Shown here: positions 39,116 through 48,605 of the stretch, piece by piece
Numbering within the stretch: the stretch's first letter is position 1
How the letters are laid out: every line of letters begins with the position of its first letter
From: an uncultured Bacteroides sp.
GTDB lineage: Bacteria > Bacteroidota > Bacteroidia > Bacteroidales > GCA-2748055
Reading direction: 5' to 3'
Length of the DNA stretch: 64,000 nucleotides
Assembly (NCBI GenBank): GCA_964453785.1
Contig: CAYVRK010000010.1
Location: 1,117 to 65,116, forward strand
Notes under the pieces: model-generated
What the model saw: only the letters and a program-made list of their open reading frames with translations
The model's database searches: none
What the model was told of the DNA's origin: nothing
Translations under genes and position numbers: made by a program

Positions 39116-40156
39116 ATGACTTTACGACTCGACAATACCCGCCGGGAATTCCTGAGAAAGCTGATTGCCGGCACCTCCATGATGGGAATGGCTCCTGTGA
39201 TAAGCAGCCTGCAATCCTGTGCAGGACCTGGTCAGAAAATTGGTCTTCCGCAAAGAACTTTTGGGGACACCGGTGAAAAAATAGGGATCTATAGCCTTGG
39301 AGCACAGGCCACGGTGGAACAGGTCGGTATGCAGACACAGGCTGTGGAAATCATCAACAGGTGCATCGACCTTGGCATCAACTACATTGACACATCGGCA
39401 TGGTACGGTATGGACGGGACCAGCAGCGAGGGGGATCATCTCAGGGGAACCAGTGAAAGACATGTGGGAGAGGTGATGAAAACACGCCGCAATGAGGTGT
39501 TTCTGGCCACCAAAACCCATGACAGGAGTTATGACGGGGCCATGCGGCACCTGGAGAGTTCACTGAAGAACCTGCAGACCGACACCATTGACCTCTGGCA
39601 GATCCACAACATCAAAGGAGGCGGGAACGAGGATATCGACTATATCTTTTCCGATGAGGGTTGTTTGAAGGCATTGCAAAAAGCCAAAGATGAGAAGGTG
39701 GTCCGCTTCCTGGGCATCACGGGCCATGCAGATCCCGACCCCATGAAGCAACTGATCGAGCGTTATCATTTCGATACGGTACTGATGGCCCTGAATGCGG
39801 CTGACAAACACTACAACTCCTTTATCGAGAAGCTGATGCCCACAGCAGTAGAAAAGAACATGGGTATCATCGGCATGAAGATCCCTGCAAGGGACCGGAT
39901 CTTCGATCATGGGGGGATCATCAGCATGAAAGAGGCCATGAGCTACACCATGTCACTTCCGGTAAGCACCATCATTGTTGGAATTGATAAGATTGCTGAA
40001 CTGGAAGAGAACATTAAAATCGCACAGGAATTTGAACCCCTCACTGTGGATGAAATGCTGGCCATCGAAGACAAGGTGAAGCCCTATTACGAACACCTGA
40101 TGTTTTACAAAGGATTGTCCGACTGGCCCGAGGTTTGGTCAGGCAACAACGTATAA
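39116..40156 (+). CDS. Tat-exported aldo/keto reductase
   Basis: Twin-arginine leader TRREFLRKLIAGTSMMGMAPV. AKR motifs GINYIDTSAWYG, VFLATK, IDLWQIHN and RFLGITGH. Confidence 0.85.
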   Translation: MTLRLDNTRREFLRKLIAGTSMMGMAPVISSLQSCAGPGQKIGLPQRTFGDTGEKIGIYSLGAQATVEQVGMQTQAVEIINRCIDLGINYIDTSAWYGMDGTSSEGDHLRGTSERHVGEVMKTRRNEVFLATKTHDRSYDGAMRHLESSLKNLQTDTIDLWQIHNIKGGGNEDIDYIFSDEGCLKALQKAKDEKVVRFLGITGHADPDPMKQLIERYHFDTVLMALNAADKHYNSFIEKLMPTAVEKNMGIIGMKIPARDRIFDHGGIISMKEAMSYTMSLPVSTIIVGIDKIAELEENIKIAQEFEPLTVDEMLAIEDKVKPYYEHLMFYKGLSDWPEVWSGNNV

Positions 40157-40184: not shown

Positions 40185-42380
40185 ATGGAACAGCAGGTGA
40201 CATCATCCTATCACGGATTCAGAATCTTCCTTATATCTTCTATTTTCTTTTTCCTGCTGGTCTTTCCATTTATGATCTACATGGGGATCCAAAGTCTGCC
40301 TGCAGTAGCCGAACGGGAGGGTCTTTTCAGAAACGATTCCACCGGGCTGACCAATTCTTCAAAGATTTTCTCGGATTCCATCAGCGAATTCACCCCGGAG
40401 AATTTTGACAGTCTGATAAACCAGGCCGTTGTGAAGGGTGAGAAATTAGCCGACACCATTGTGAAGAAACGTACCCCCGGCGGGATCATCTCTTTCCAGG
40501 ATGACGGGGAAGAGGTCAACGCCTTCGATAAAAAAGGGCCCTTTTTGAAGTTTTTCAAATGGTTCTTCATGTTAACGCTGCTCAGTTACATTGCAGGATT
40601 AATGTATAACATCCGGTTTAAGATATTCTTCAAAAGAAAGCAGCGCAAACAGGAAATATCCGAAAAAATTCAATCTTTCTGCAAAAAACAGCTTCTTCAC
40701 ACTCCTCTGGTCAATGCCCTGATCATCACCCTGCCCAACCTGGTGCTCATCATCTTCTCCCTGGTCTATATCCTCTCCGGGCATGAGTACAGCACGGATA
40801 CAGAAAGGGATCTGTTTGTCCAGTTCTTCTACCTCACACTGGCAGCCTCACTGCTGGAATTCCTGTTTGCCTTCTACTGGCAGAAACACAGGGTTCAGCT
40901 GAAATATATTGACTATGTTTATCCAGCCGAGGAACTGAGGACCCGTGTATTTCGGAGGAAGGGAGGCAAGATCAGACACCGCTATATCATTGCCAGTGTA
41001 ATCACCACCCTGCTTCCACTCCTGATTGTTGCGGTATACCTGATCCTGAGCATGACTTCTGTGAAAGAGCTGGATCTTGACACGATCTCCAATGAACAAA
41101 TTGATATCCTGATTGGTCCCTGGGGATCCCTGTTCCACCTTGATCAGGTTTCCTTTAACATGGAGAAATTAGGTTGGTTGTTCTATGTTAATGCCGGAGA
41201 TTCCCTGTTGATGATTATCGGGATCTGTAACGGGATCCTGGTCACCTTCATCTACCTGTTGCTCCTGATTAAGTGGACAAGCCAGGACATAACCCGCCCG
41301 GTAAAGGAAATCCTGATGAACATGAGAAACACCAAGGGAGGTGCCATAGAGCAATACACCATCGTACGGACCAACGATGAGATCGGGGAACTGGCCGAGG
41401 GATACAATGAGATGACCAGCAAGATCCATGATCACATGGAGCATATTTTCACCATGAACCGTGACCTGGAACTTACCGTTGAAGAACGGACGCAGGAGGT
41501 GGTTATGCAGAAAGAAGAGATCGAAGCACAGAAGGAGGAGATCGAGGCTCAACTGGACCTGACCATGCTCCAGCGGGATACCATCTCAAACCAAAAGGAA
41601 CAGATTCTGGACTCGATTCGCTATGCAGAGAAAATCCAGTCGGCCCTTCTTCCTCCCGACAGATACCTTGCCGAATCACTTACTGACCATTTCATCCTGT
41701 TCAAGCCCAGAGATATTGTCAGCGGTGATTATTACTGGACAACCTTCAAAGATGGCAAGCTTCTGATCGCTGTGGCTGATTGCACGGGACACGGTGTCCC
41801 GGGAGCATTCCTGAGCGTGCTAGGAATTTCCTCCATGAATGAGATCGTGAACAGGGAAGGGATATCCAAGGCCAGCCATATCCTGGAGCACCTTAGAAAC
41901 TTTGTGATCCAAACTTTGCACCAGACCGGGGCCCGGGGCGAAGCACAGGACGGGATCGAAATCGCCCTGTGCATCATTGATACAAAGAAGCTTTCCCTGG
42001 AATTTGCGGGTGCAAACAGACCCCTTTACCTGGTCAGATCTGTCACCGGCAAAACGGGTGAAACCAAACCCGAACTGATTCATATCAGGGGGGACAGGAT
42101 GCCGATCGGGATCTACCAGCAGGAGGCTGATCCATTTACCAACCATAGCCTGAAACTGAAGAAGGATGATACCATCTACCTCTTCTCAGATGGCTATACA
42201 GATCAGCTGGGGGGTGCTAAAAGAAAGACATTCCGTTCGGTACATTTCAGGGAACTGCTCATGCAAATCCAGGATAAGACCATGGACCAGCAGAAAAGGA
42301 TTCTTCTTGAGAATCATGAATCATGGCGCGGAGAGGTGGAGCAGATTGATGATATTCTTGTGGTGGGAATCAGGTTGTAA
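40185..42380 (+). CDS. Membrane-bound PP2C/SpoIIE-family Ser/Thr phosphatase with a HAMP-like linker and coiled coil (SiaA/RsbU-like)
   Basis: Six hydrophobic helices lie in the first ~370 aa. HAMP-like ITRPVKEILMNMRN...NDEIGELAEGYNEMT. Coiled coil with QKEEIEAQKEEIEAQ. PP2C motifs SGDYYW, AVADCTGHGVPGAFLS, LFSDGYTDQ and DDILVVGIRL. Confidence 0.85.
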   Translation: MEQQVTSSYHGFRIFLISSIFFFLLVFPFMIYMGIQSLPAVAEREGLFRNDSTGLTNSSKIFSDSISEFTPENFDSLINQAVVKGEKLADTIVKKRTPGGIISFQDDGEEVNAFDKKGPFLKFFKWFFMLTLLSYIAGLMYNIRFKIFFKRKQRKQEISEKIQSFCKKQLLHTPLVNALIITLPNLVLIIFSLVYILSGHEYSTDTERDLFVQFFYLTLAASLLEFLFAFYWQKHRVQLKYIDYVYPAEELRTRVFRRKGGKIRHRYIIASVITTLLPLLIVAVYLILSMTSVKELDLDTISNEQIDILIGPWGSLFHLDQVSFNMEKLGWLFYVNAGDSLLMIIGICNGILVTFIYLLLLIKWTSQDITRPVKEILMNMRNTKGGAIEQYTIVRTNDEIGELAEGYNEMTSKIHDHMEHIFTMNRDLELTVEERTQEVVMQKEEIEAQKEEIEAQLDLTMLQRDTISNQKEQILDSIRYAEKIQSALLPPDRYLAESLTDHFILFKPRDIVSGDYYWTTFKDGKLLIAVADCTGHGVPGAFLSVLGISSMNEIVNREGISKASHILEHLRNFVIQTLHQTGARGEAQDGIEIALCIIDTKKLSLEFAGANRPLYLVRSVTGKTGETKPELIHIRGDRMPIGIYQQEADPFTNHSLKLKKDDTIYLFSDGYTDQLGGAKRKTFRSVHFRELLMQIQDKTMDQQKRILLENHESWRGEVEQIDDILVVGIRL

Positions 42381-42392
42381 GGATTTTCCCTC

Positions 42393-42773
42393 CTATATCT
42401 CTTCCTTCACATAATCAAATTTAATCCCGGACATCCTGGACATTTCCAGTCCTACTTCATACATGTCCTCATCATCCTCTTCATAATGCCATTTCACTCC
42501 GACATCAGTTCCGGATTCCTGAATGGAATGAAGGATCTTGAAGATATCCAGAATGTATTTGGCCGACGTGGAATTGAAGTACTCTAAATTAAATTTGAAA
42601 GTGCATGGACCGGTATCCCCGGCTGCAAACTGCTCCAGCCATTCCAGGATGGGTATATAAAAATTTCTTACGTTTTCAGGTCGTGATTCACCGGAAAACT
42701 CAAACAGTTTTTCCACGGGATCCAGAACAACGCCGGGGGAATTTAATGTGGGTTCAATGGTCAGTTTTTCCAT
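42393..42773 (-). CDS. DUF1987 / SiaC-like partner-switch phosphoprotein
   Basis: 126 aa. Family-typical TPGVVLD-like NSPGVVLDPVEKLFEFSGESRPENVRNFYIPILEWL and FKFNLEYFNSTSAKYILDIFKIL. Confidence 0.72.
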   Translation of the reverse strand: MEKLTIEPTLNSPGVVLDPVEKLFEFSGESRPENVRNFYIPILEWLEQFAAGDTGPCTFKFNLEYFNSTSAKYILDIFKILHSIQESGTDVGVKWHYEEDDEDMYEVGLEMSRMSGIKFDYVKEEI

Positions 42774-42776
42774 GAG

Positions 42777-43289
42777 TTATCCGTTTAGGGTGATTTTCAT
42801 CTCAAAAAAAGAATGGTCCGCATCCACGGGGGCGAAACTGTACTCAATATCTGAATCTGTACGCATAGCCATGGTGATCAGCCCCAGTCCCGCCCCGGTA
42901 TCACTGGCGCTTGATTCTTTATTGATTACCTCTTCGTATAAAGATTTAAGTGCTTCAAAGTCCAGTTGATTTACCCTGTCGAGCTTAAATTTCAGGTCCC
43001 CTATATCGTCATTCAGAACCAGGTTGCCGACCCTGACATAGTATTGATCCTTCTGCTTCATCACAATGATCTTTGGAGTCCGGGATGAATTGCGGGATTT
43101 CCCTGGCAACTTGGCTCCATATTTGAAAATGTTATCGATGGATTCGACGAAGATCCCGTAAAGCCTTTTTTTTGACGGTTTATTCATCTTCTGGAATTCC
43201 TGGTTGTCCCTCAAAGTATTCAATAGTATTTCAATAGTCCCAAAGGTAATGGCACCTTCAAAATCTACCAGGGTTGCTGATTTCGACAT
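42777..43289 (-). CDS. SiaB-like GHKL-type protein kinase (anti-sigma-kinase fold)
   Basis: 170 aa. FEGAITFGTIEILLNTL, IFVESIDNIFKYG (N-box-like) and DTGAGLGLITMA (G-box). It lies 3 bp upstream of the SiaC-like gene. Confidence 0.68.
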   Translation of the reverse strand: MSKSATLVDFEGAITFGTIEILLNTLRDNQEFQKMNKPSKKRLYGIFVESIDNIFKYGAKLPGKSRNSSRTPKIIVMKQKDQYYVRVGNLVLNDDIGDLKFKLDRVNQLDFEALKSLYEEVINKESSASDTGAGLGLITMAMRTDSDIEYSFAPVDADHSFFEMKITLNG

Positions 43290-43332
43290 TCCGTTTACAA
43301 AGAAAAGAAAAAAATAGTTACCTTAATCATCC

Positions 43333-46300
43333 ATGAGCGAAGCCATATTAAAAGCCTTGATGCAATTGTTTGCATTGATCATCGACATAGACGAGGTCGA
43401 TGAGATTTCTGACAGGGAAAGGGAGATTATCCGGGCTTTTCTCACGCGCCAGCTGAGCACTGAACTGGTGGATAAGTACCTGAAAGTATTCGATGAGTAT
43501 CTGGCGCTCTATCACCAGGACAGGATCACAAAGGGCAGTCTAAGGGACAAAAAACGAACCTCCCTGACCGCAGTCAGAATTCTTGGGATCTGCCAAAAAA
43601 TCAACGAGGAACTGGAACAGAAGCAGAAAATTTATGTTCTCATCCAGCTTATTGAATATATTGCTTACGGAATTGAGATCCGTGAGAAAGAGTTGGATTT
43701 TCTCAATACAGTTGCCTCTGCATTCAATATCCATGAGGAAGAGTATGAGAACATCCTCAGGTTTGTGGCCTATTCCCGTGAAGAGATCCCACAGAAAAGC
43801 AGGGTCCTGGTGATCAACAGTGAGGATACAGCGATCTACGAAGAGGTCCATCACATCAGAGACGAGAAGATGACCGGAGAGATCTCTTTTTTGAGCATTG
43901 AAAGTGTGAACACATTTGTCCTCAGGTACCATGGAAAAGAGGACCTGTATCTCAACGGGCAACATCTTCAGACGGGGACAACCACTACCTTCGAATACGG
44001 ATCCTCCATCAGGGGTTCAAGCATTGACACCATCTACTATTCTGATGTGGCAGGGGTGTTTTCAAAGTCCTCCATTGCTTTCAGCCTCACCTTTGAGGCA
44101 AGAGGTGTGGAATTCAGGTTTCGAAACAGTAAGAACGGTATTCAGGAATTCAACCTGCAGGAAGAATCGGGAACGCTGGTTGGAATAATGGGAGGAAGCG
44201 GTGTAGGGAAATCCACCTTGTTGAATGTACTGAACGGCAACCTGAAACCCATGAGCGGTGAGATCCTGATCAACGGAATCAACATCCACGATGAAAAAGA
44301 GAAGGAGAAGCTGAACGGGGTCATTGGTTTTATCCCACAGGACGACCTGCTGATTGAGGACCTGACCGTATATCAAAACCTCTACTACAATGCACTACTC
44401 TGCCTGGACCGGTATGAGGATCAGCAGATCAGGGAAGTGGTGGACCGGGTGCTGGTGGACCTGGATCTGTATGAGATCCGGAACCTGAAGGTGGGAAAAC
44501 CACTGAACAAAGTTATAAGCGGGGGCCAGCGGAAAAGGGTGAATATTGGTCTGGAGCTGATCAGGGAACCATCAGTCCTTTTCGTGGATGAACCCACCTC
44601 CGGACTGTCATCGGTGGACTCAGAAATGGTCATGACCCTGCTGAAAGAACAGGTCTACAAAGGCAAACTGGTGTTCGTAAACATCCACCAACCATCTTCT
44701 GACCTTTACAAGATGTTCGATAAGATCATCTTCATGGACAAGGGCGGTTACCAGATCTATTATGGCAATCCCTCCGAAGCCGTGGTCTACTTCAAGACCA
44801 AAAGCAAGCATGCCAATGCCAAGGAGGACCAGTGTCCCAGATGCGGGAACATTGATCCGGACCAGGTGATGCAGATCATCGAGGCAAAGATAGTCAATGA
44901 ACACGGCAAACTCTCCAGGACCAGAAAAGTAAGCCCGAAAGAATGGTTTGCACGCTATAAGGAAGGCAAGCCACCGAACCCGGAAAAAAAGCAGGAAAAA
45001 GCGGAACTTCCCGAGAATTATTACAGCATCCCGGGGCTCCTGAAACAATTGAAGATATATTTCATCCGTGATCTCCTTTCAAAGCTGACCAACAAACAGT
45101 ATGTCCTGATCAGTTTGTTGGAGGCGCCGCTACTGGCTGTGATCCTGGGTTATTTCACCAAGTACGCTAGCGGGGTTTCAGGGAATCCGGCAGCCTATGT
45201 TTTCAGAAACAATGAGAACCTCCCCGCCTTCCTGCTGATGAGCGTCATTGTTTTTTTGTTCCTTGGGCTGACCATCAGTTCGGAAGAGATCATCAAAGAG
45301 CGCAAGATACTTCAAAGAGAGTCCTTCCTGAACCTGAGCAGGGCCAGTTTTCTGAACTCAAAAATACTGATCATGTTCCTGATCTCGGCCATCCAGTCCA
45401 TCTCTTATGTGCTGATCGCTAACTTCATTTTCGAAATCAGAGGAATGACATTTTCTTACTGGCTGATTCTCTTTAGCACATCCTGTTTTGCCAACCTCCT
45501 GGGCCTCAATATTTCGTCAGGACTCAATTCGGTGATCACCATCTATATCCTGGTGCCTTTTCTCCTGATCCCCCAGATTCTCTTTTGCGGTGTCCTTGTG
45601 AAGTTTGACAAGCTGCACCGATCCCTGACCAATTACCAGTATGTCCCTTTTATCGGTGACATGATGACCTCACGGTGGGCTTACGAGGCCCTGTCAGTGG
45701 AACAGTTTAAAAACAACCGGTACATGCGTGAGTTCTTCGACATTGAACAGGAGATCAGCAACAATGCCTACCTGGAATCCTTCCTGCTGCCTTCACTGGA
45801 ATCAAGCATGGATGAAACCCTTCAGTATATGGCCTTGGGGAAAGAGAAAGAACAGGTAAAGCTGAACCTTCAGATGCTGGACCGTCAATTATCGTTTCTG
45901 GCAGACCAGTTTCCACAAGTTCCCGGGACCAGTCCGGAACAGATTGCAGTTAAGTCATTTAACGATTCTGTAGCCAGCGGAATCAAACAATATCTAGAGG
46001 CATTGAGACAGATTGCGCACAAGCAACGTGTCCATGCCAGTGAAGCAAGAAACATGAAGCAGAGACAGTTGACCGATCAACTGGGTGGGGTTGCATCGTA
46101 TACCGCGTTCAGGGATGCCTATGAAAACGTTCAGCTTTCAGACATCCTGCTCAATAACAAGGCCCTGGACAAGATTGAACAGAAAGGTTCCTTATTGATC
46201 AGCAGGTACAATCCGGTTTATATGGAATCCCCGTCAAAGATTGGAAGGGCCCAACTCTATGCAGCACATAAAAGAATCGGGAACTGGAAAATCTCTACGC

Positions 46301-46431
46301 TCTGGTTCAATGTGATGGTAATCTGGTTTACCTGCCTGCTGCTTTACATGACGCTTTACTACGATACGCTCAGAAAAATCCTGGGATTTTTCGACCATGT
46401 AAACCTCGCCAGGCAATCCGGGAATGGTTGA
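43333..46431 (+). CDS. ABCG-type fused ATPase/ABC-2 permease transporter with an N-terminal TerB-like helical module and an FHA-like beta module
   Basis: 1032 aa. Residues 1-140 are a helical bundle, TerB-like (AILKALMQLFALIIDIDEVDEISDREREIIRAFL). Residues ~190-240 read FVLRYHGKEDLYLNGQHLQTGTTTTFEYGSSIRGSS (FHA-like, degenerate). Walker A GGSGVGKST, signature ISGGQRKRV, Walker B LFVDEPTSGLS and ABCG-style H-loop NIHQPS. The C-terminus has 6-7 TM helices. Confidence 0.88.
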   Translation: MSEAILKALMQLFALIIDIDEVDEISDREREIIRAFLTRQLSTELVDKYLKVFDEYLALYHQDRITKGSLRDKKRTSLTAVRILGICQKINEELEQKQKIYVLIQLIEYIAYGIEIREKELDFLNTVASAFNIHEEEYENILRFVAYSREEIPQKSRVLVINSEDTAIYEEVHHIRDEKMTGEISFLSIESVNTFVLRYHGKEDLYLNGQHLQTGTTTTFEYGSSIRGSSIDTIYYSDVAGVFSKSSIAFSLTFEARGVEFRFRNSKNGIQEFNLQEESGTLVGIMGGSGVGKSTLLNVLNGNLKPMSGEILINGINIHDEKEKEKLNGVIGFIPQDDLLIEDLTVYQNLYYNALLCLDRYEDQQIREVVDRVLVDLDLYEIRNLKVGKPLNKVISGGQRKRVNIGLELIREPSVLFVDEPTSGLSSVDSEMVMTLLKEQVYKGKLVFVNIHQPSSDLYKMFDKIIFMDKGGYQIYYGNPSEAVVYFKTKSKHANAKEDQCPRCGNIDPDQVMQIIEAKIVNEHGKLSRTRKVSPKEWFARYKEGKPPNPEKKQEKAELPENYYSIPGLLKQLKIYFIRDLLSKLTNKQYVLISLLEAPLLAVILGYFTKYASGVSGNPAAYVFRNNENLPAFLLMSVIVFLFLGLTISSEEIIKERKILQRESFLNLSRASFLNSKILIMFLISAIQSISYVLIANFIFEIRGMTFSYWLILFSTSCFANLLGLNISSGLNSVITIYILVPFLLIPQILFCGVLVKFDKLHRSLTNYQYVPFIGDMMTSRWAYEALSVEQFKNNRYMREFFDIEQEISNNAYLESFLLPSLESSMDETLQYMALGKEKEQVKLNLQMLDRQLSFLADQFPQVPGTSPEQIAVKSFNDSVASGIKQYLEALRQIAHKQRVHASEARNMKQRQLTDQLGGVASYTAFRDAYENVQLSDILLNNKALDKIEQKGSLLISRYNPVYMESPSKIGRAQLYAAHKRIGNWKISTLWFNVMVIWFTCLLLYMTLYYDTLRKILGFFDHVNLARQSGNG

Positions 46432-46458: not shown

Positions 46459-47631
46459 TCACCCGGCCCGCATGTGCCGCAGTTTGAACAGCCAGGTTCC
46501 CAGGAAAAAGTAAAGGATGGCAAGTACCAGAATGGCTGCCATTTCGGGAAGGATATCCCGGGCCTCCAGTCCCACTACCAGCACCTTGTTCAGAGCATCC
46601 ACCGCCCAGGTAGGAGAGAGAAGATGGTTCAACATCACATCGAATTCCCCCACCGAAAAAAGCCTGCCTCCCGAAACCGGGAAGGCAGCTCCGGTGAAAA
46701 ACATCAGCAGGAACAGGGGGAAGGTCCCGATGATGGCCACCTCCTTGATGGACCTGCACATGGCTGCCACAATGAGACTGAAGCTGATCATGGAGAGCGA
46801 TGTGAGGAAAGCTATCAGGAACAGGATTCCCAGGGTGCCTGGAATCAAGGTATAACCCATCGCCAGCGCTGCCAGGAGGGCAACCACCAGAGAGACAAAG
46901 GCTATAATAATCTGTACCAGGGAGATCCCGCCCAGGAACTCCACAGAAGTAAGCCGTGAGATCTTCAGACGTTCCAGGGTCTTGGTTTCGGGCTCCCTTA
47001 CAATGGCTGCAGAAGCTGAAAAGATAATCATGATGATGGAGAGAATCAGCAGTCCGGGCACATAAAGCTCAAATTCGGACCGGTCTCCCGAATGACCCAG
47101 TGTGGTTTCGGTCCAGGTCACGGGAAGCCGGATACCGGCAGCTTCCAAAATTAGGGCATTGGCCATTTCTTCCGTCCAGATGGCACCCACAATATACTGC
47201 AGGCTGGTCACATTCCCCGCCAGCTCCATCACCGCCGGTGCGGGTGGACTGAGCGTTTGGTCAGCATGTGTCATGATGGAACCGGAAAAGTCTTCCGGGA
47301 TCACCATCAGGACATCTGCTTTACCCTTTTTTAGCTTGTCTATGGCGCTTTCCCTGTCCCTCCCCATTGAATAAACCAGGTTTGCAATTTCTTTATGAGC
47401 CACCGTTTGAAGGGTGTTGATCAGGGTGTCGCCCAGGTTTATCTTCTCGCCCGCATGGACTACTCCCTTGTCCCTGTTGACCAGGATCACCTCGTAGCTC
47501 ACCTCACCCGGGTCCGACATAAGGAAATAGATACCGATAAACAGGGGGGCCATCACCACAATCATGATCAGTATCCAGTAGTCCCTCCACTGCTCCCTGA
47601 CTCCCTTGATAAATACATAATACCACCTCAT
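46459..47631 (-). CDS. ABC-2-type transporter permease
   Basis: 390 aa. One N-terminal TM helix, a large extracytoplasmic loop, then 5 C-terminal TM helices. Its start overlaps the ATPase stop by 4 nt. Confidence 0.8.
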   Translation of the reverse strand: MRWYYVFIKGVREQWRDYWILIMIVVMAPLFIGIYFLMSDPGEVSYEVILVNRDKGVVHAGEKINLGDTLINTLQTVAHKEIANLVYSMGRDRESAIDKLKKGKADVLMVIPEDFSGSIMTHADQTLSPPAPAVMELAGNVTSLQYIVGAIWTEEMANALILEAAGIRLPVTWTETTLGHSGDRSEFELYVPGLLILSIIMIIFSASAAIVREPETKTLERLKISRLTSVEFLGGISLVQIIIAFVSLVVALLAALAMGYTLIPGTLGILFLIAFLTSLSMISFSLIVAAMCRSIKEVAIIGTFPLFLLMFFTGAAFPVSGGRLFSVGEFDVMLNHLLSPTWAVDALNKVLVVGLEARDILPEMAAILVLAILYFFLGTWLFKLRHMRAG

Positions 47632-48605
47632 GACCGCAGGCTTTTGCCGGTTAATTGGATAAATACATCTTCCAGGGTATTCTCGCGCACTTTTAATTCC
47701 AACACAGTAACTTTTTCATACTCCAGAAGCTGATAAATTTCATGAATTCGCGGCACCAGGTCCATGGAGCGGACCACCAGGGTTTCATCTTCGCGGGTTA
47801 CCGTAAAACCTCTCTCGGTCAGCCTCTTCTCTGCCACATGAAGTGCATCTCTTTCATCAGATTGTGTTTTCAGTTCCAGGATGTCCCCCTGGCCAATGGA
47901 GCGTTTCAGATTCCCCGGTGTATCCAGTTTCAGCAACTTCCCCGAATCGATGATGGCCACCCTGTGGGCAAGCCGGTCCGCTTCATCCATGTTGTGGGTG
48001 GTGATGATCACCGTCTTTGTCGCGGCTGTCTCTCTGATGAAATCCCTCACCAGGACCCTGCTCTGTGGATCCAGACCCGCTTCCGGTTCATCAAACACCA
48101 GGATCTCCGGATCGTGCATAAGGGCCAGGATCACATTCATCCGCCTTTTCATTCCTCCCGAAAGCGTGGCCGCCAGCTTATTCTTCTTCCCATCCAGACC
48201 CATGTGGGAAAGCAAGCTGGCTGCCCTTTTCCTGGCCACAGGTCCGGGCACGTTGTACATCCTGGCACTGAATACCAGCTGCTCGAAGCAGGTGAGCCTG
48301 CTCCAGAGGATGTTTTCCTGTGGACAGATGCCCACCCTGGAACGCACTTCCGCCCCCCATTCCTCCTCAATATCCTTTCCTCCCACCAGGACCTGGCCTG
48401 AAGTGGGCTTGAGGAGACCGCACATCATCCGGATGGAGGTGGTTTTACCGGCACCATTGGGTCCGAGCAATCCAAGAATCTCTCCCCGGCGGACCTCCAG
48501 TGAGAGATGATCCACCGCGGCGAGGTCCCCATAGGTTTTAACCAGGTCCCTGACCTCTAGGACAGAGGTAAGATTTGCTGCCGGGATTATCATAGTTCCA
48601 CTCAA
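47628..48605 (-). CDS. ABC transporter ATP-binding protein (ABC-2/DrrA-like exporter ATPase)
   Basis: Walker A GPNGAGKTT, Q-loop ICPQEN, signature LSGGMKRRMNV, Walker B LVFDEPEAGLD and H-loop ITTHNM. Confidence 0.92.
   Translation of the reverse strand: MSGTMIIPAANLTSVLEVRDLVKTYGDLAAVDHLSLEVRRGEILGLLGPNGAGKTTSIRMMCGLLKPTSGQVLVGGKDIEEEWGAEVRSRVGICPQENILWSRLTCFEQLVFSARMYNVPGPVARKRAASLLSHMGLDGKKNKLAATLSGGMKRRMNVILALMHDPEILVFDEPEAGLDPQSRVLVRDFIRETAATKTVIITTHNMDEADRLAHRVAIIDSGKLLKLDTPGNLKRSIGQGDILELKTQSDERDALHVAEKRLTERGFTVTREDETLVVRSMDLVPRIHEIYQLLEYEKVTVLELKVRENTLEDVFIQLTGKSLRS

Follow-up and report, generated by a model that had tools for sequence, protein, structure and literature searches.

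TerB-like and FHA-like heads on a family of ABCG-type transporters linked to SiaB/SiaC partner-switch genes in Bacteroidia

The transporter gene and its switch-gene neighbors

The stretch of DNA analyzed here, referred to below as the window, comprises 64,000 nucleotides of contig CAYVRK010000010.1 (assembly GCA_964453785.1) from an uncultured Bacteroides sp. It contains a gene for a half-transporter of the ABCG type, a class of ATP-binding cassette (ABC) transporter, in which a TerB-like bundle of helices, followed by a beta sandwich of FHA-like shape, precedes the ATP-binding domain. The gene lies beside genes for a SiaB-family kinase, a SiaC-family phosphoprotein, and a SiaA-like phosphatase, the components of a partner switch. 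The association between this transporter family and SiaB/SiaC genes, documented below, recurs through the class Bacteroidia, and bears on the proposal that the transporter is the output of the switch. The features of the locus, in window coordinates, are as follows.

40185..42380, plus strand: gene for a SiaA-like membrane sensor phosphatase with a transmembrane (TM) region, a HAMP domain, and a PP2C/SpoIIE domain; convergent with the SiaC gene
42393..42773, minus strand: gene for a SiaC-family phosphoprotein of 126 residues (PF09345, 117.6 bits); next after the SiaB gene
42777..43289, minus strand: gene for a SiaB-family protein kinase of 170 residues (matches to NF038262, DUF6272, and 6kko_A)
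43290..43332: A-rich spacer of 43 bp between the divergent SiaB-family and ABC genes (from the sequence and the gene coordinates)
43333..46431, plus strand: gene for the ABCG-type half-transporter, 1032 residues, in the order TerB-like bundle, FHA-like domain, nucleotide-binding domain (NBD), TM1-5, periplasmic domain, TM6 (open reading frame, Pfam, NCBIfam, AlphaFold2 (AF2), Foldseek)
43333..43770, plus strand: TerB-like bundle of seven helices, residues 1-146 (Pfam below threshold, AF2, Foldseek)
43795..44073, plus strand: degenerate FHA-like beta sandwich with a C-terminal helix, residues 155-247 (AF2, Foldseek, profiles)
44089..44832, plus strand: ATP-binding domain, residues 253-500, with Walker A, Q-loop, signature, Walker B, and H-loop intact
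45037..45711, plus strand: elbow helix, TM1 to TM5a, and re-entrant helix, residues 569-793 (PF01061, AF2 helices, hydropathy)
45715..46296, plus strand: helical and beta-hairpin domain, residues 795-988, predicted to be periplasmic, an enlarged extracellular loop 3
46297..46431, plus strand: TM6 (residues 989-1009), a short C-terminal helix, and the stop codon (AF2 helices 989-1009 and 1012-1030)

The transporter gene starts with ATG, and this choice of start is backed by residues M1, E3, L6, and L12, invariant or nearly so throughout the family. An earlier note on this DNA had placed a divergent SiaB-like gene 43 bp away, and the SiaB gene does begin at 43289 on the minus strand. Its product scores 128.4 bits against NCBIfam model NF038262, above the cut-off of 85, matches DUF6272 with an E-value of 2.6e-33, and aligns to SiaB of Pseudomonas aeruginosa (chain 6kko_A) with an E-value of 4.3e-13. 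The SiaC-family protein, which aligns to 6kko_C and 7e6g (E-value 3.6e-13) and scores under its NCBIfam equivalog cut-off, carries N67-S68-T69 where the alignment places the N67-T68-S69 phosphorylation site of the P. aeruginosa protein. In the SiaA-like protein, a HAMP domain at residues 366-415 is followed by a SpoIIE domain (PF07228) at residues 523-730; its match to NF038263 has an E-value of 3.8e-60 and a score of 204 bits, under the equivalog cut-off of 700. A SiaA phosphatase, a SiaB kinase, and a phosphorylatable SiaC are thus all present. A SiaD-type diguanylate cyclase is missing; Pfam showed no GGDEF domain among the locus proteins.

These genes resemble the SiaABCD system of P. aeruginosa (PDB 6kko, 6kkp, 7e6g; PMC8457831) in combining a PP2C-HAMP phosphatase, a SiaB-family kinase, and a DUF1987 protein SiaC with an Asn-Ser/Thr-Ser/Thr phosphorylation site, and in clustering with a presumed output. 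They differ in that the candidate output is an ABC transporter and no diguanylate cyclase accompanies it, in the gene order, with siaA pointing toward siaBC and the ABC gene pointing away from them, and in the scores of the local SiaA and SiaC under the equivalog cut-offs.

An ABCG-type core behind a TerB-like and FHA-like head

Pfam places an ATPase domain (ABC_tran, PF00005) at residues 271-423, with an E-value of 1.3e-29, and a permease domain (ABC2_membrane, PF01061) at residues 572-771. This arrangement on a single chain, NBD before transmembrane domain (TMD), is the order of ABCG and ABC-2 (type V fold) transporters. The earlier note had described a fused ATPase/permease of 1032 residues with the ABCG hallmarks ISGGQRKRV and NIHQPS, and both motifs were located, at residues 395-403 and 450-455. 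The best NCBIfam model is TIGR00955 (ABCG/white type, eye-pigment-precursor), with an E-value of 3.6e-74; the score of 250.5 bits falls below the curated cut-off of 736, and by this measure the protein is related to the TIGR00955 subfamily and is not a member of it. Over 95 aligned family members, GGSGVGKST, Q336, ISGGQRKR, D419-E420 (which includes the catalytic Glu), and H452 are invariant or nearly so, and because of this conservation the transporter looks catalytically competent. It presumably acts as a homodimer. Between the ATPase and membrane domains, at residues 501-506 (44833-44850), there is in addition a C-x-x-C-G-N motif whose C501, C504, and G505 are invariant in 95 of 95 aligned relatives; two subunits together could provide a putative four-Cys metal site.

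The full-length AF2 model has a predicted local distance difference test score (pLDDT) of 84.5. Its best Foldseek matches are ABCG16, ABCG5/G8, ABCG2, ABCG1, and ABCG25, at template modeling scores (TMt) of 0.73-0.80, E-values of about 1e-23 to 1e-20, and sequence identities of 21-25%. The protein shares with these eukaryotic transporters, including the plant proteins ABCG16 and ABCG25, the NBD-TMD order, the NIHQPS H-loop, and a re-entrant helix after TM5a. It differs from them in its TerB-like and FHA-like head, and in a domain of about 190 residues that replaces the short extracellular loop 3.

That second difference concerns what at first sight is a C-terminal tail, probably a periplasmic domain, a point absent from the earlier note. 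Hydropathy peaks lie at residues 591-609, 630-648, 678-696, and 734-752, with TM5a at 734-750 and the re-entrant helix at 779-793. Beyond TM5a, the helices of at least 11 residues between positions 798 and 940 are not hydrophobic, with Kyte-Doolittle averages of -0.9 to 0.03, and the only hydrophobic helix is 989-1009, with values of 1.61-1.88. Because these helices are hydrophilic, and 989-1009 is the last hydrophobic helix, residues ~795-988 in an ABCG topology most likely form a large periplasmic loop 3 of about 190 residues ahead of TM6; the side of the membrane is assigned by homology to that topology. An alternative layout, in which residues 798-988 make a cytoplasmic C-terminal extension followed by a seventh TM helix, was rejected on the hydropathy.

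The head was modeled with AF2 as residues 1-260, using the 95-sequence alignment, at a pLDDT of 86.3 and a predicted template modeling score (pTM) of 0.83. The model consists of seven helices (residues 3-146), eight strands (158-235), for which pLDDT exceeds 90, and one further helix (236-245). The extra N-terminal part reported in the earlier note is therefore present, at a length of about 250 rather than 270 residues, and residues 1-250 are conserved as a unit.

The earlier note had also read the first half of the head as a TerB-like bundle, and the predicted fold bears this out. In Foldseek, the AF2 helices (3-146) match 2h5n (PG1108 of Porphyromonas gingivalis), which we take to be a TerB-like protein, with TMt of 0.56-0.61 and a probability of 0.98-1.0. 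The Pfam TerB model (PF05099) covers residues 8-141 at 21.8 bits when the head alone is searched (range for the window protein 17.2-21.8), under the cut-off of 24.4. The same model matches 7 of 18 diverse relatives, with a best E-value of 9.5e-10, and gives one relative, P0238, a score of 27.3 bits.

For the beta-rich half, the FHA shape suggested in the earlier note is what structure prediction returns. PDB matches found by Foldseek are almost exclusively FHA domains (MEK1, KIF1A, CEP170, Rad53, TIFA, and Bdellovibrio DgcB), with probabilities of 0.97-1.0 but with E-values of only 0.02-0.3 and TMt of 0.4-0.5. Sequence comparison gives fainter signals. The Pfam FHA model (PF00498) does not match the window protein even at lenient thresholds, and matches one of 26 family members, at an E-value of 0.034. 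A profile of the beta-domain family, searched against PDB sequences, finds the MEK1 FHA domain alone, weakly (E-value 0.22), and the head as a single sequence or as a whole-head profile finds no match there. An hhalign comparison of the beta domain with three canonical FHA domains from related genomes aligns 28 columns at low probability. Both this alignment and that to MEK1 span only the C-terminal structural half, LyLNG...GssI. Across the family, the consensus of the domain is L-I-N/D-n ... K-H-I ... G-x-x-E-L-Y-L-N-G ... G-S-S-I-R. In the family and profile alignments we did not find the Gly-Arg, the Ser-x-x-His, or the beta6-beta7 Asn (the T-N position) of canonical FHA domains, in agreement with the absence of the Arg, Ser, and His residues judged by eye in the earlier note. 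On this sequence evidence the domain appears to be a degenerate FHA domain that has lost its phosphothreonine-reading residues. Other polar residues of the head, H174, R227, Y235, and D238, are nearly invariant. In the whole genome, no canonical FHA domain was found at an E-value of 1e-8 or better. Three unusually long members of the transporter family (P0232, P0238, P0258) contain no fusion of SiaC to the transporter.

Phospho-independent FHA-like cytoplasmic domains occur in YscD/PrgH of type III secretion and EssC of type VII secretion. These are different transport machines, which resemble the present family in that an FHA fold without phosphothreonine-reading residues is carried on a membrane transport machine. 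The head would be a natural case in which a bacterial ABCG-type pump carries an FHA fold that no longer reads phosphothreonine.

The transporter family and its linkage to two types of switch

A word-indexed search limited to residues 1-270 matches more than 1,100 proteins; among the 120 matches listed, nearly all the complete ones are ~1020-1035 residues long. An exhaustive HMMER search gives 717 cluster representatives, nearly all of which, where full-length, have ~1000-1050 residues. With the head profile, members were detected in 225 of 401 genomes sampled across Bacteroidia, spanning 109 of 200 genera and often in several copies; the family is widespread in Bacteroidota. The genome described here has four ABC paralogs.

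At about 90 of 100 sampled loci (L035-L134), a gene for a lipoprotein of ~300 residues and one for a secreted protein of ~140 residues lie directly upstream of the transporter gene on the same strand, as a three-gene operon (for example L042:6552-7923 and L058:6582-7929). The lipoprotein is marked by the motif FSIPSP-x-QTA and the secreted protein by QCD..A..C......YISDGQ.YRALL; neither has a Pfam match. Since in most relatives the transporter gene shares an operon with the genes for these two proteins, an envelope lipid or some other hydrophobic molecule is the probable substrate. The window's clade has lost these accessory genes from its locus.

Three of the four ABC paralogs in this genome adjoin a SiaB-SiaC pair, each in a different arrangement: the window's paralog is divergent from its pair, C19 is convergent, and C45 is co-directional, behind a SiaA-like gene. 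These pairs account for three of the five SiaC homologs of the genome and three of the four SiaB homologs. The pairing extends well beyond it. Among orthologous loci from other species, SiaB and SiaC are adjacent in 18 of 29, and in the 100-locus class-wide sample 31 loci have a SiaB or SiaC gene no more than 8 kb away, 24 of them no more than 1.3 kb away. We also compared complete lists of both families from 23 near-complete genomes, counting as adjacent any two genes less than 1.5 kb apart. The 33 ABC paralogs and 81 SiaC genes in this set show 14 adjacencies, in 10 genomes, about 70-fold above the ~0.2 expected by chance as estimated from gene and genome sizes. Where a genome has a single SiaC gene, it is beside an ABC gene in four of six cases.

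A maximum likelihood tree of 131 ABC family members separates clades that each have an arrangement of their own: divergent in 10 of 10 members of the window's clade, co-directional in 8 of 8, and convergent in 21 of 98, the last being the large lipoprotein-linked clade. The same divisions recur in the SiaC tree, where the three ABC-linked SiaC proteins of this genome group with SiaC proteins of other organisms from the matching ABC clades, and its two unlinked SiaC proteins stand apart. Because the two trees mirror each other, the ABC-SiaBC pairs appear, as judged from the sequences, to have been inherited and duplicated as units. The co-occurrence that the earlier note proposed to check thus reaches far beyond this genome, in three arrangements and with matching ABC and SiaC phylogenies. 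In convergent and co-directional loci it is SiaC, not SiaB, that abuts the ABC gene, and at some loci (L099, L130) SiaC is present with no detected SiaB.

The region C18:2050-6223 holds the fourth paralog of this genome, which has no SiaB or SiaC beside it. A gene for a REC-HisKA-HATPase protein runs 8 nt into the start of this paralog, lipoprotein genes lie on both sides, and in the tree the paralog shares a long branch with a Rikenellaceae homolog that has a divergent receiver gene just upstream.

A fourth clade of the ABC tree, from Prolixibacteraceae, Lentimicrobiaceae, and relatives, lacks SiaBC and instead has, downstream, genes for a kinase of the RsbW type (HATPase_c_2) and for a STAS protein, with Cache-HAMP-PP2C or receiver-PP2C genes nearby; some such genes are found in six of eight members. 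Examples of these flanks are L021:8941-9796, L135:9184-9969, L136:10061-12763, and L137:692-1870. A structural relationship between STAS and the DUF1987 fold of SiaC has been reported (PMC8457831). Because SiaBC-type and STAS-type switches flank the same transporter family, the presence of two analogous switches argues for a functional connection over chance synteny. We had considered Sia-less orthologs as evidence against coupling and set this argument aside, since several carry the RsbW/STAS/PP2C set instead. The flanked clade resembles RsbU/RsbW/RsbV-type switches in having a phosphatase, a kinase, and a STAS-like antagonist, and differs from them in that the outputs described for those switches are sigma factors or diguanylate cyclases. 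Partner switches with outputs other than sigma factors include HsbR-HsbA-HsbD of P. aeruginosa and BgrSTUWV of Sinorhizobium meliloti (both cited in PMC8457831).

How the switch and the transporter may be connected

SiaC of P. aeruginosa, in its unphosphorylated form, uses N67/T68/S69 to bind the helical stalk of the cyclase SiaD, and it can no longer do so once SiaB has phosphorylated T68 (PMC8457831). The genome described here, which is 99% complete, encodes five SiaC proteins, four SiaB proteins, and about fifteen SiaA-like PP2C matches, and contains no GGDEF domain at an E-value of 0.001 or better. Because it has no GGDEF domain, its five SiaC homologs must act on a target other than SiaD. 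From the domain architecture, predicted folds, conserved motifs, and gene linkage with co-diversification observed here, we infer a physical contact, its docking site, the sign of regulation, and the substrate. In the reading that we somewhat favor, at odds slightly better than even, the transporter is an output of the adjacent SiaA/SiaB/SiaC partner switch, with unphosphorylated SiaC docking on it and phosphorylation releasing SiaC. The membrane sensor SiaA, through its PP2C domain, would govern the phosphorylation of SiaC at S68/T69. The TerB-like bundle and FHA-fold domain, which stand directly ahead of the ATP-binding domain in each subunit, would be cytoplasmic; by analogy with SiaC and SiaD, unphosphorylated SiaC would dock on this head or on the ATPase region and thereby change ATPase and export activity. 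SiaB, by phosphorylating SiaC, would release it from the transporter. Comparative genomics supports the suggestion in the earlier note that the transporter is the missing output of the switch, and the complete absence of GGDEF domains strengthens it; the transporter is thus a plausible output.

A broader form of the proposal covers the whole family: SiaC antagonists in three ABC clades, and STAS antagonists in the fourth, would directly gate an ABCG-type envelope exporter of Bacteroidota by docking on its TerB-like and phospho-blind FHA-like head. We regard this generalization as possible but tentative.

Several observations weigh against the transporter as output. In about half or more of the family, the 8 kb around the transporter gene contain neither SiaBC nor RsbW/STAS genes; because these members carry the same head, it is not SiaC-specific. 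Only 17% of the SiaC genes in the 23-genome set adjoin the ABC family, so SiaC has other partners. The divergent and convergent arrangements imply separate transcripts, with no co-transcription. The window's paralog and its close orthologs have no lipoprotein or small secreted protein genes at their loci. No equivalent of the parallel helical stalk to which SiaC binds in P. aeruginosa SiaD was identified in the transporter. Finally, the linkage and the mirrored trees would also follow from simple co-inheritance of neighbors.

Switch proteins of this genome may pair with other ABC transporters too. Outside the window, at C72:134-1771, a further SiaC gene directly follows a gene whose product resembles, by eye, a MacB/FtsX-type ABC permease, and at C33:21591-24702 a SiaB-like gene directly precedes a gene that reads as one for an FtsX-type permease of 816 residues.

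The linkage data give no direction, and the flow of information could be reversed, with the transporter serving as a sensor that reports flux or substrate load through its head to SiaB or SiaC, and with an output elsewhere. Bce-type ABC transporters report flux to their kinases in this way. A role in sensing ligands or stress is generally discussed for TerB domains. Every paralog in this genome, moreover, is beside signaling genes, including the REC-HisKA-HATPase gene at C18 and an Hpt gene near C19. However, the locus already has a membrane sensor, SiaA, with its TM region and HAMP domain, the loci share no other conserved protein that could be the output, and the genome has no GGDEF domain; we consider a sensing transporter unlikely.

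It is rather improbable, in our estimate, that SiaB itself, or SiaB set free from SiaC, phosphorylates the transporter head or linker or binds to it, with SiaC acting only as an antagonist that titrates SiaB. Classical partner-switch kinases such as RsbW and SpoIIAB do bind their outputs themselves, an RsbW-type gene directly follows the transporter gene in one ABC clade (one member of which, L018, has no STAS gene in its 6-kb downstream flank), and at the window's locus the SiaB gene is the immediate divergent neighbor of the ABC gene. PknF of Mycobacterium tuberculosis is reported to phosphorylate the exporter Rv1747 between its FHA domains (PMC8339232). Against direct action of the kinase, the output in SiaABCD is bound by SiaC, not by SiaB (PMC8457831), it is SiaC that abuts the ABC gene in convergent and co-directional loci, and SiaC occurs at L099 and L130 where no SiaB was detected.

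Rv1747 also provides a precedent for the mechanism put forward in the earlier note, in which the FHA-like domain binds phosphorylated SiaC and SiaB activity thereby recruits phospho-SiaC to the pump. This ABC exporter carries FHA domains at its N-terminus and is under the control of the Ser/Thr kinase PknF (PMC3138270, PMC8339232). Like the window's protein, it has an FHA fold ahead of an ABC-2/ABCG-type exporter in which the NBD precedes the TMD, and its gene adjoins a Ser/Thr kinase gene. The FHA domains of Rv1747, however, are two in number, canonical, and able to bind phosphothreonine, and its kinase is of the Hanks type. In the present case a single degenerate FHA-like domain stands behind a TerB bundle, the transporter has a large predicted periplasmic domain, and the kinase is of the SiaB type and has a separate phosphoprotein substrate. 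The FHA-like fold itself favors recognition of phospho-SiaC, and H174, R227, Y235, and D238 could form a non-canonical site. Nevertheless, the canonical phosphothreonine-binding residues are missing from the family conservation, the alignments to canonical FHA domains cover only part of the fold, and the Pfam FHA model matches one family member in 26. The same head, furthermore, is found beside STAS-type switches or with no switch nearby, and the polarity is opposite to that of the characterized system, in which phosphorylation of SiaC at T68 blocks partner binding (PMC8457831). We therefore judge this mechanism quite improbable, and docking of unphosphorylated SiaC the more likely of the two. 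An equally improbable account, that the genes have no direct functional link and are neighbors through shared ancestry or shared regulation only, accommodates the many members without nearby switch genes, the location of most SiaC genes elsewhere, and the separate transcripts. Against it stand an adjacency that survives three rearrangements and deep divergence at about 70-fold over the chance estimate, three paralogous pairs in one genome, and an analogous STAS-type switch in another ABC clade.

Sigma factors and diguanylate cyclases are among the known targets of partner switches, and a transporter output is not described in the literature searched. Our searches found no paper linking SiaB/SiaC, DUF1987, or DUF6272 with an ABC transporter, and none on the combination of TerB, FHA, and ABC domains in Bacteroidota or on this ABC family. 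Known modules are here joined in a way that has not been described, within a large family that is itself unstudied. If the broader, family-wide proposal is right, the transporter would be the first described transporter output of partner-switch signaling, and the gating of exporters would be the main role of SiaB and SiaC in a lineage without cyclic di-GMP synthesis, such as that of this genome. The proposal offers a testable answer to what SiaB and SiaC do in organisms without cyclic di-GMP. The family reaches over half of the Bacteroidia genomes sampled, often with several copies, and its genes usually share an operon with those for a lipoprotein and a small secreted protein. This points to a regulated envelope export pathway, so far unstudied, in a phylum that matters in gut, soil, and marine habitats.

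Two further neighbors flank the locus. A gene pair for an ABC-2 permease and an ATPase (46459-48605, minus strand) is convergent with the ABCG gene. Synteny of this pair holds directly in L001, L005, and L009, and about 2.7 kb further away in L003 and L007, whereas the 6-kb flank of other close relatives does not contain the pair; because synteny is kept in only some close relatives, it probably represents an independent exporter. On the other side, directly upstream of the SiaA-like gene, is an aldo-keto reductase gene (39116-40156, plus strand) whose product has an N-terminus resembling a twin-arginine signal (RREFLRK). By tblastn, this gene is at the same place in six of the closest relatives (L001-L003, L005, L007, and L008).

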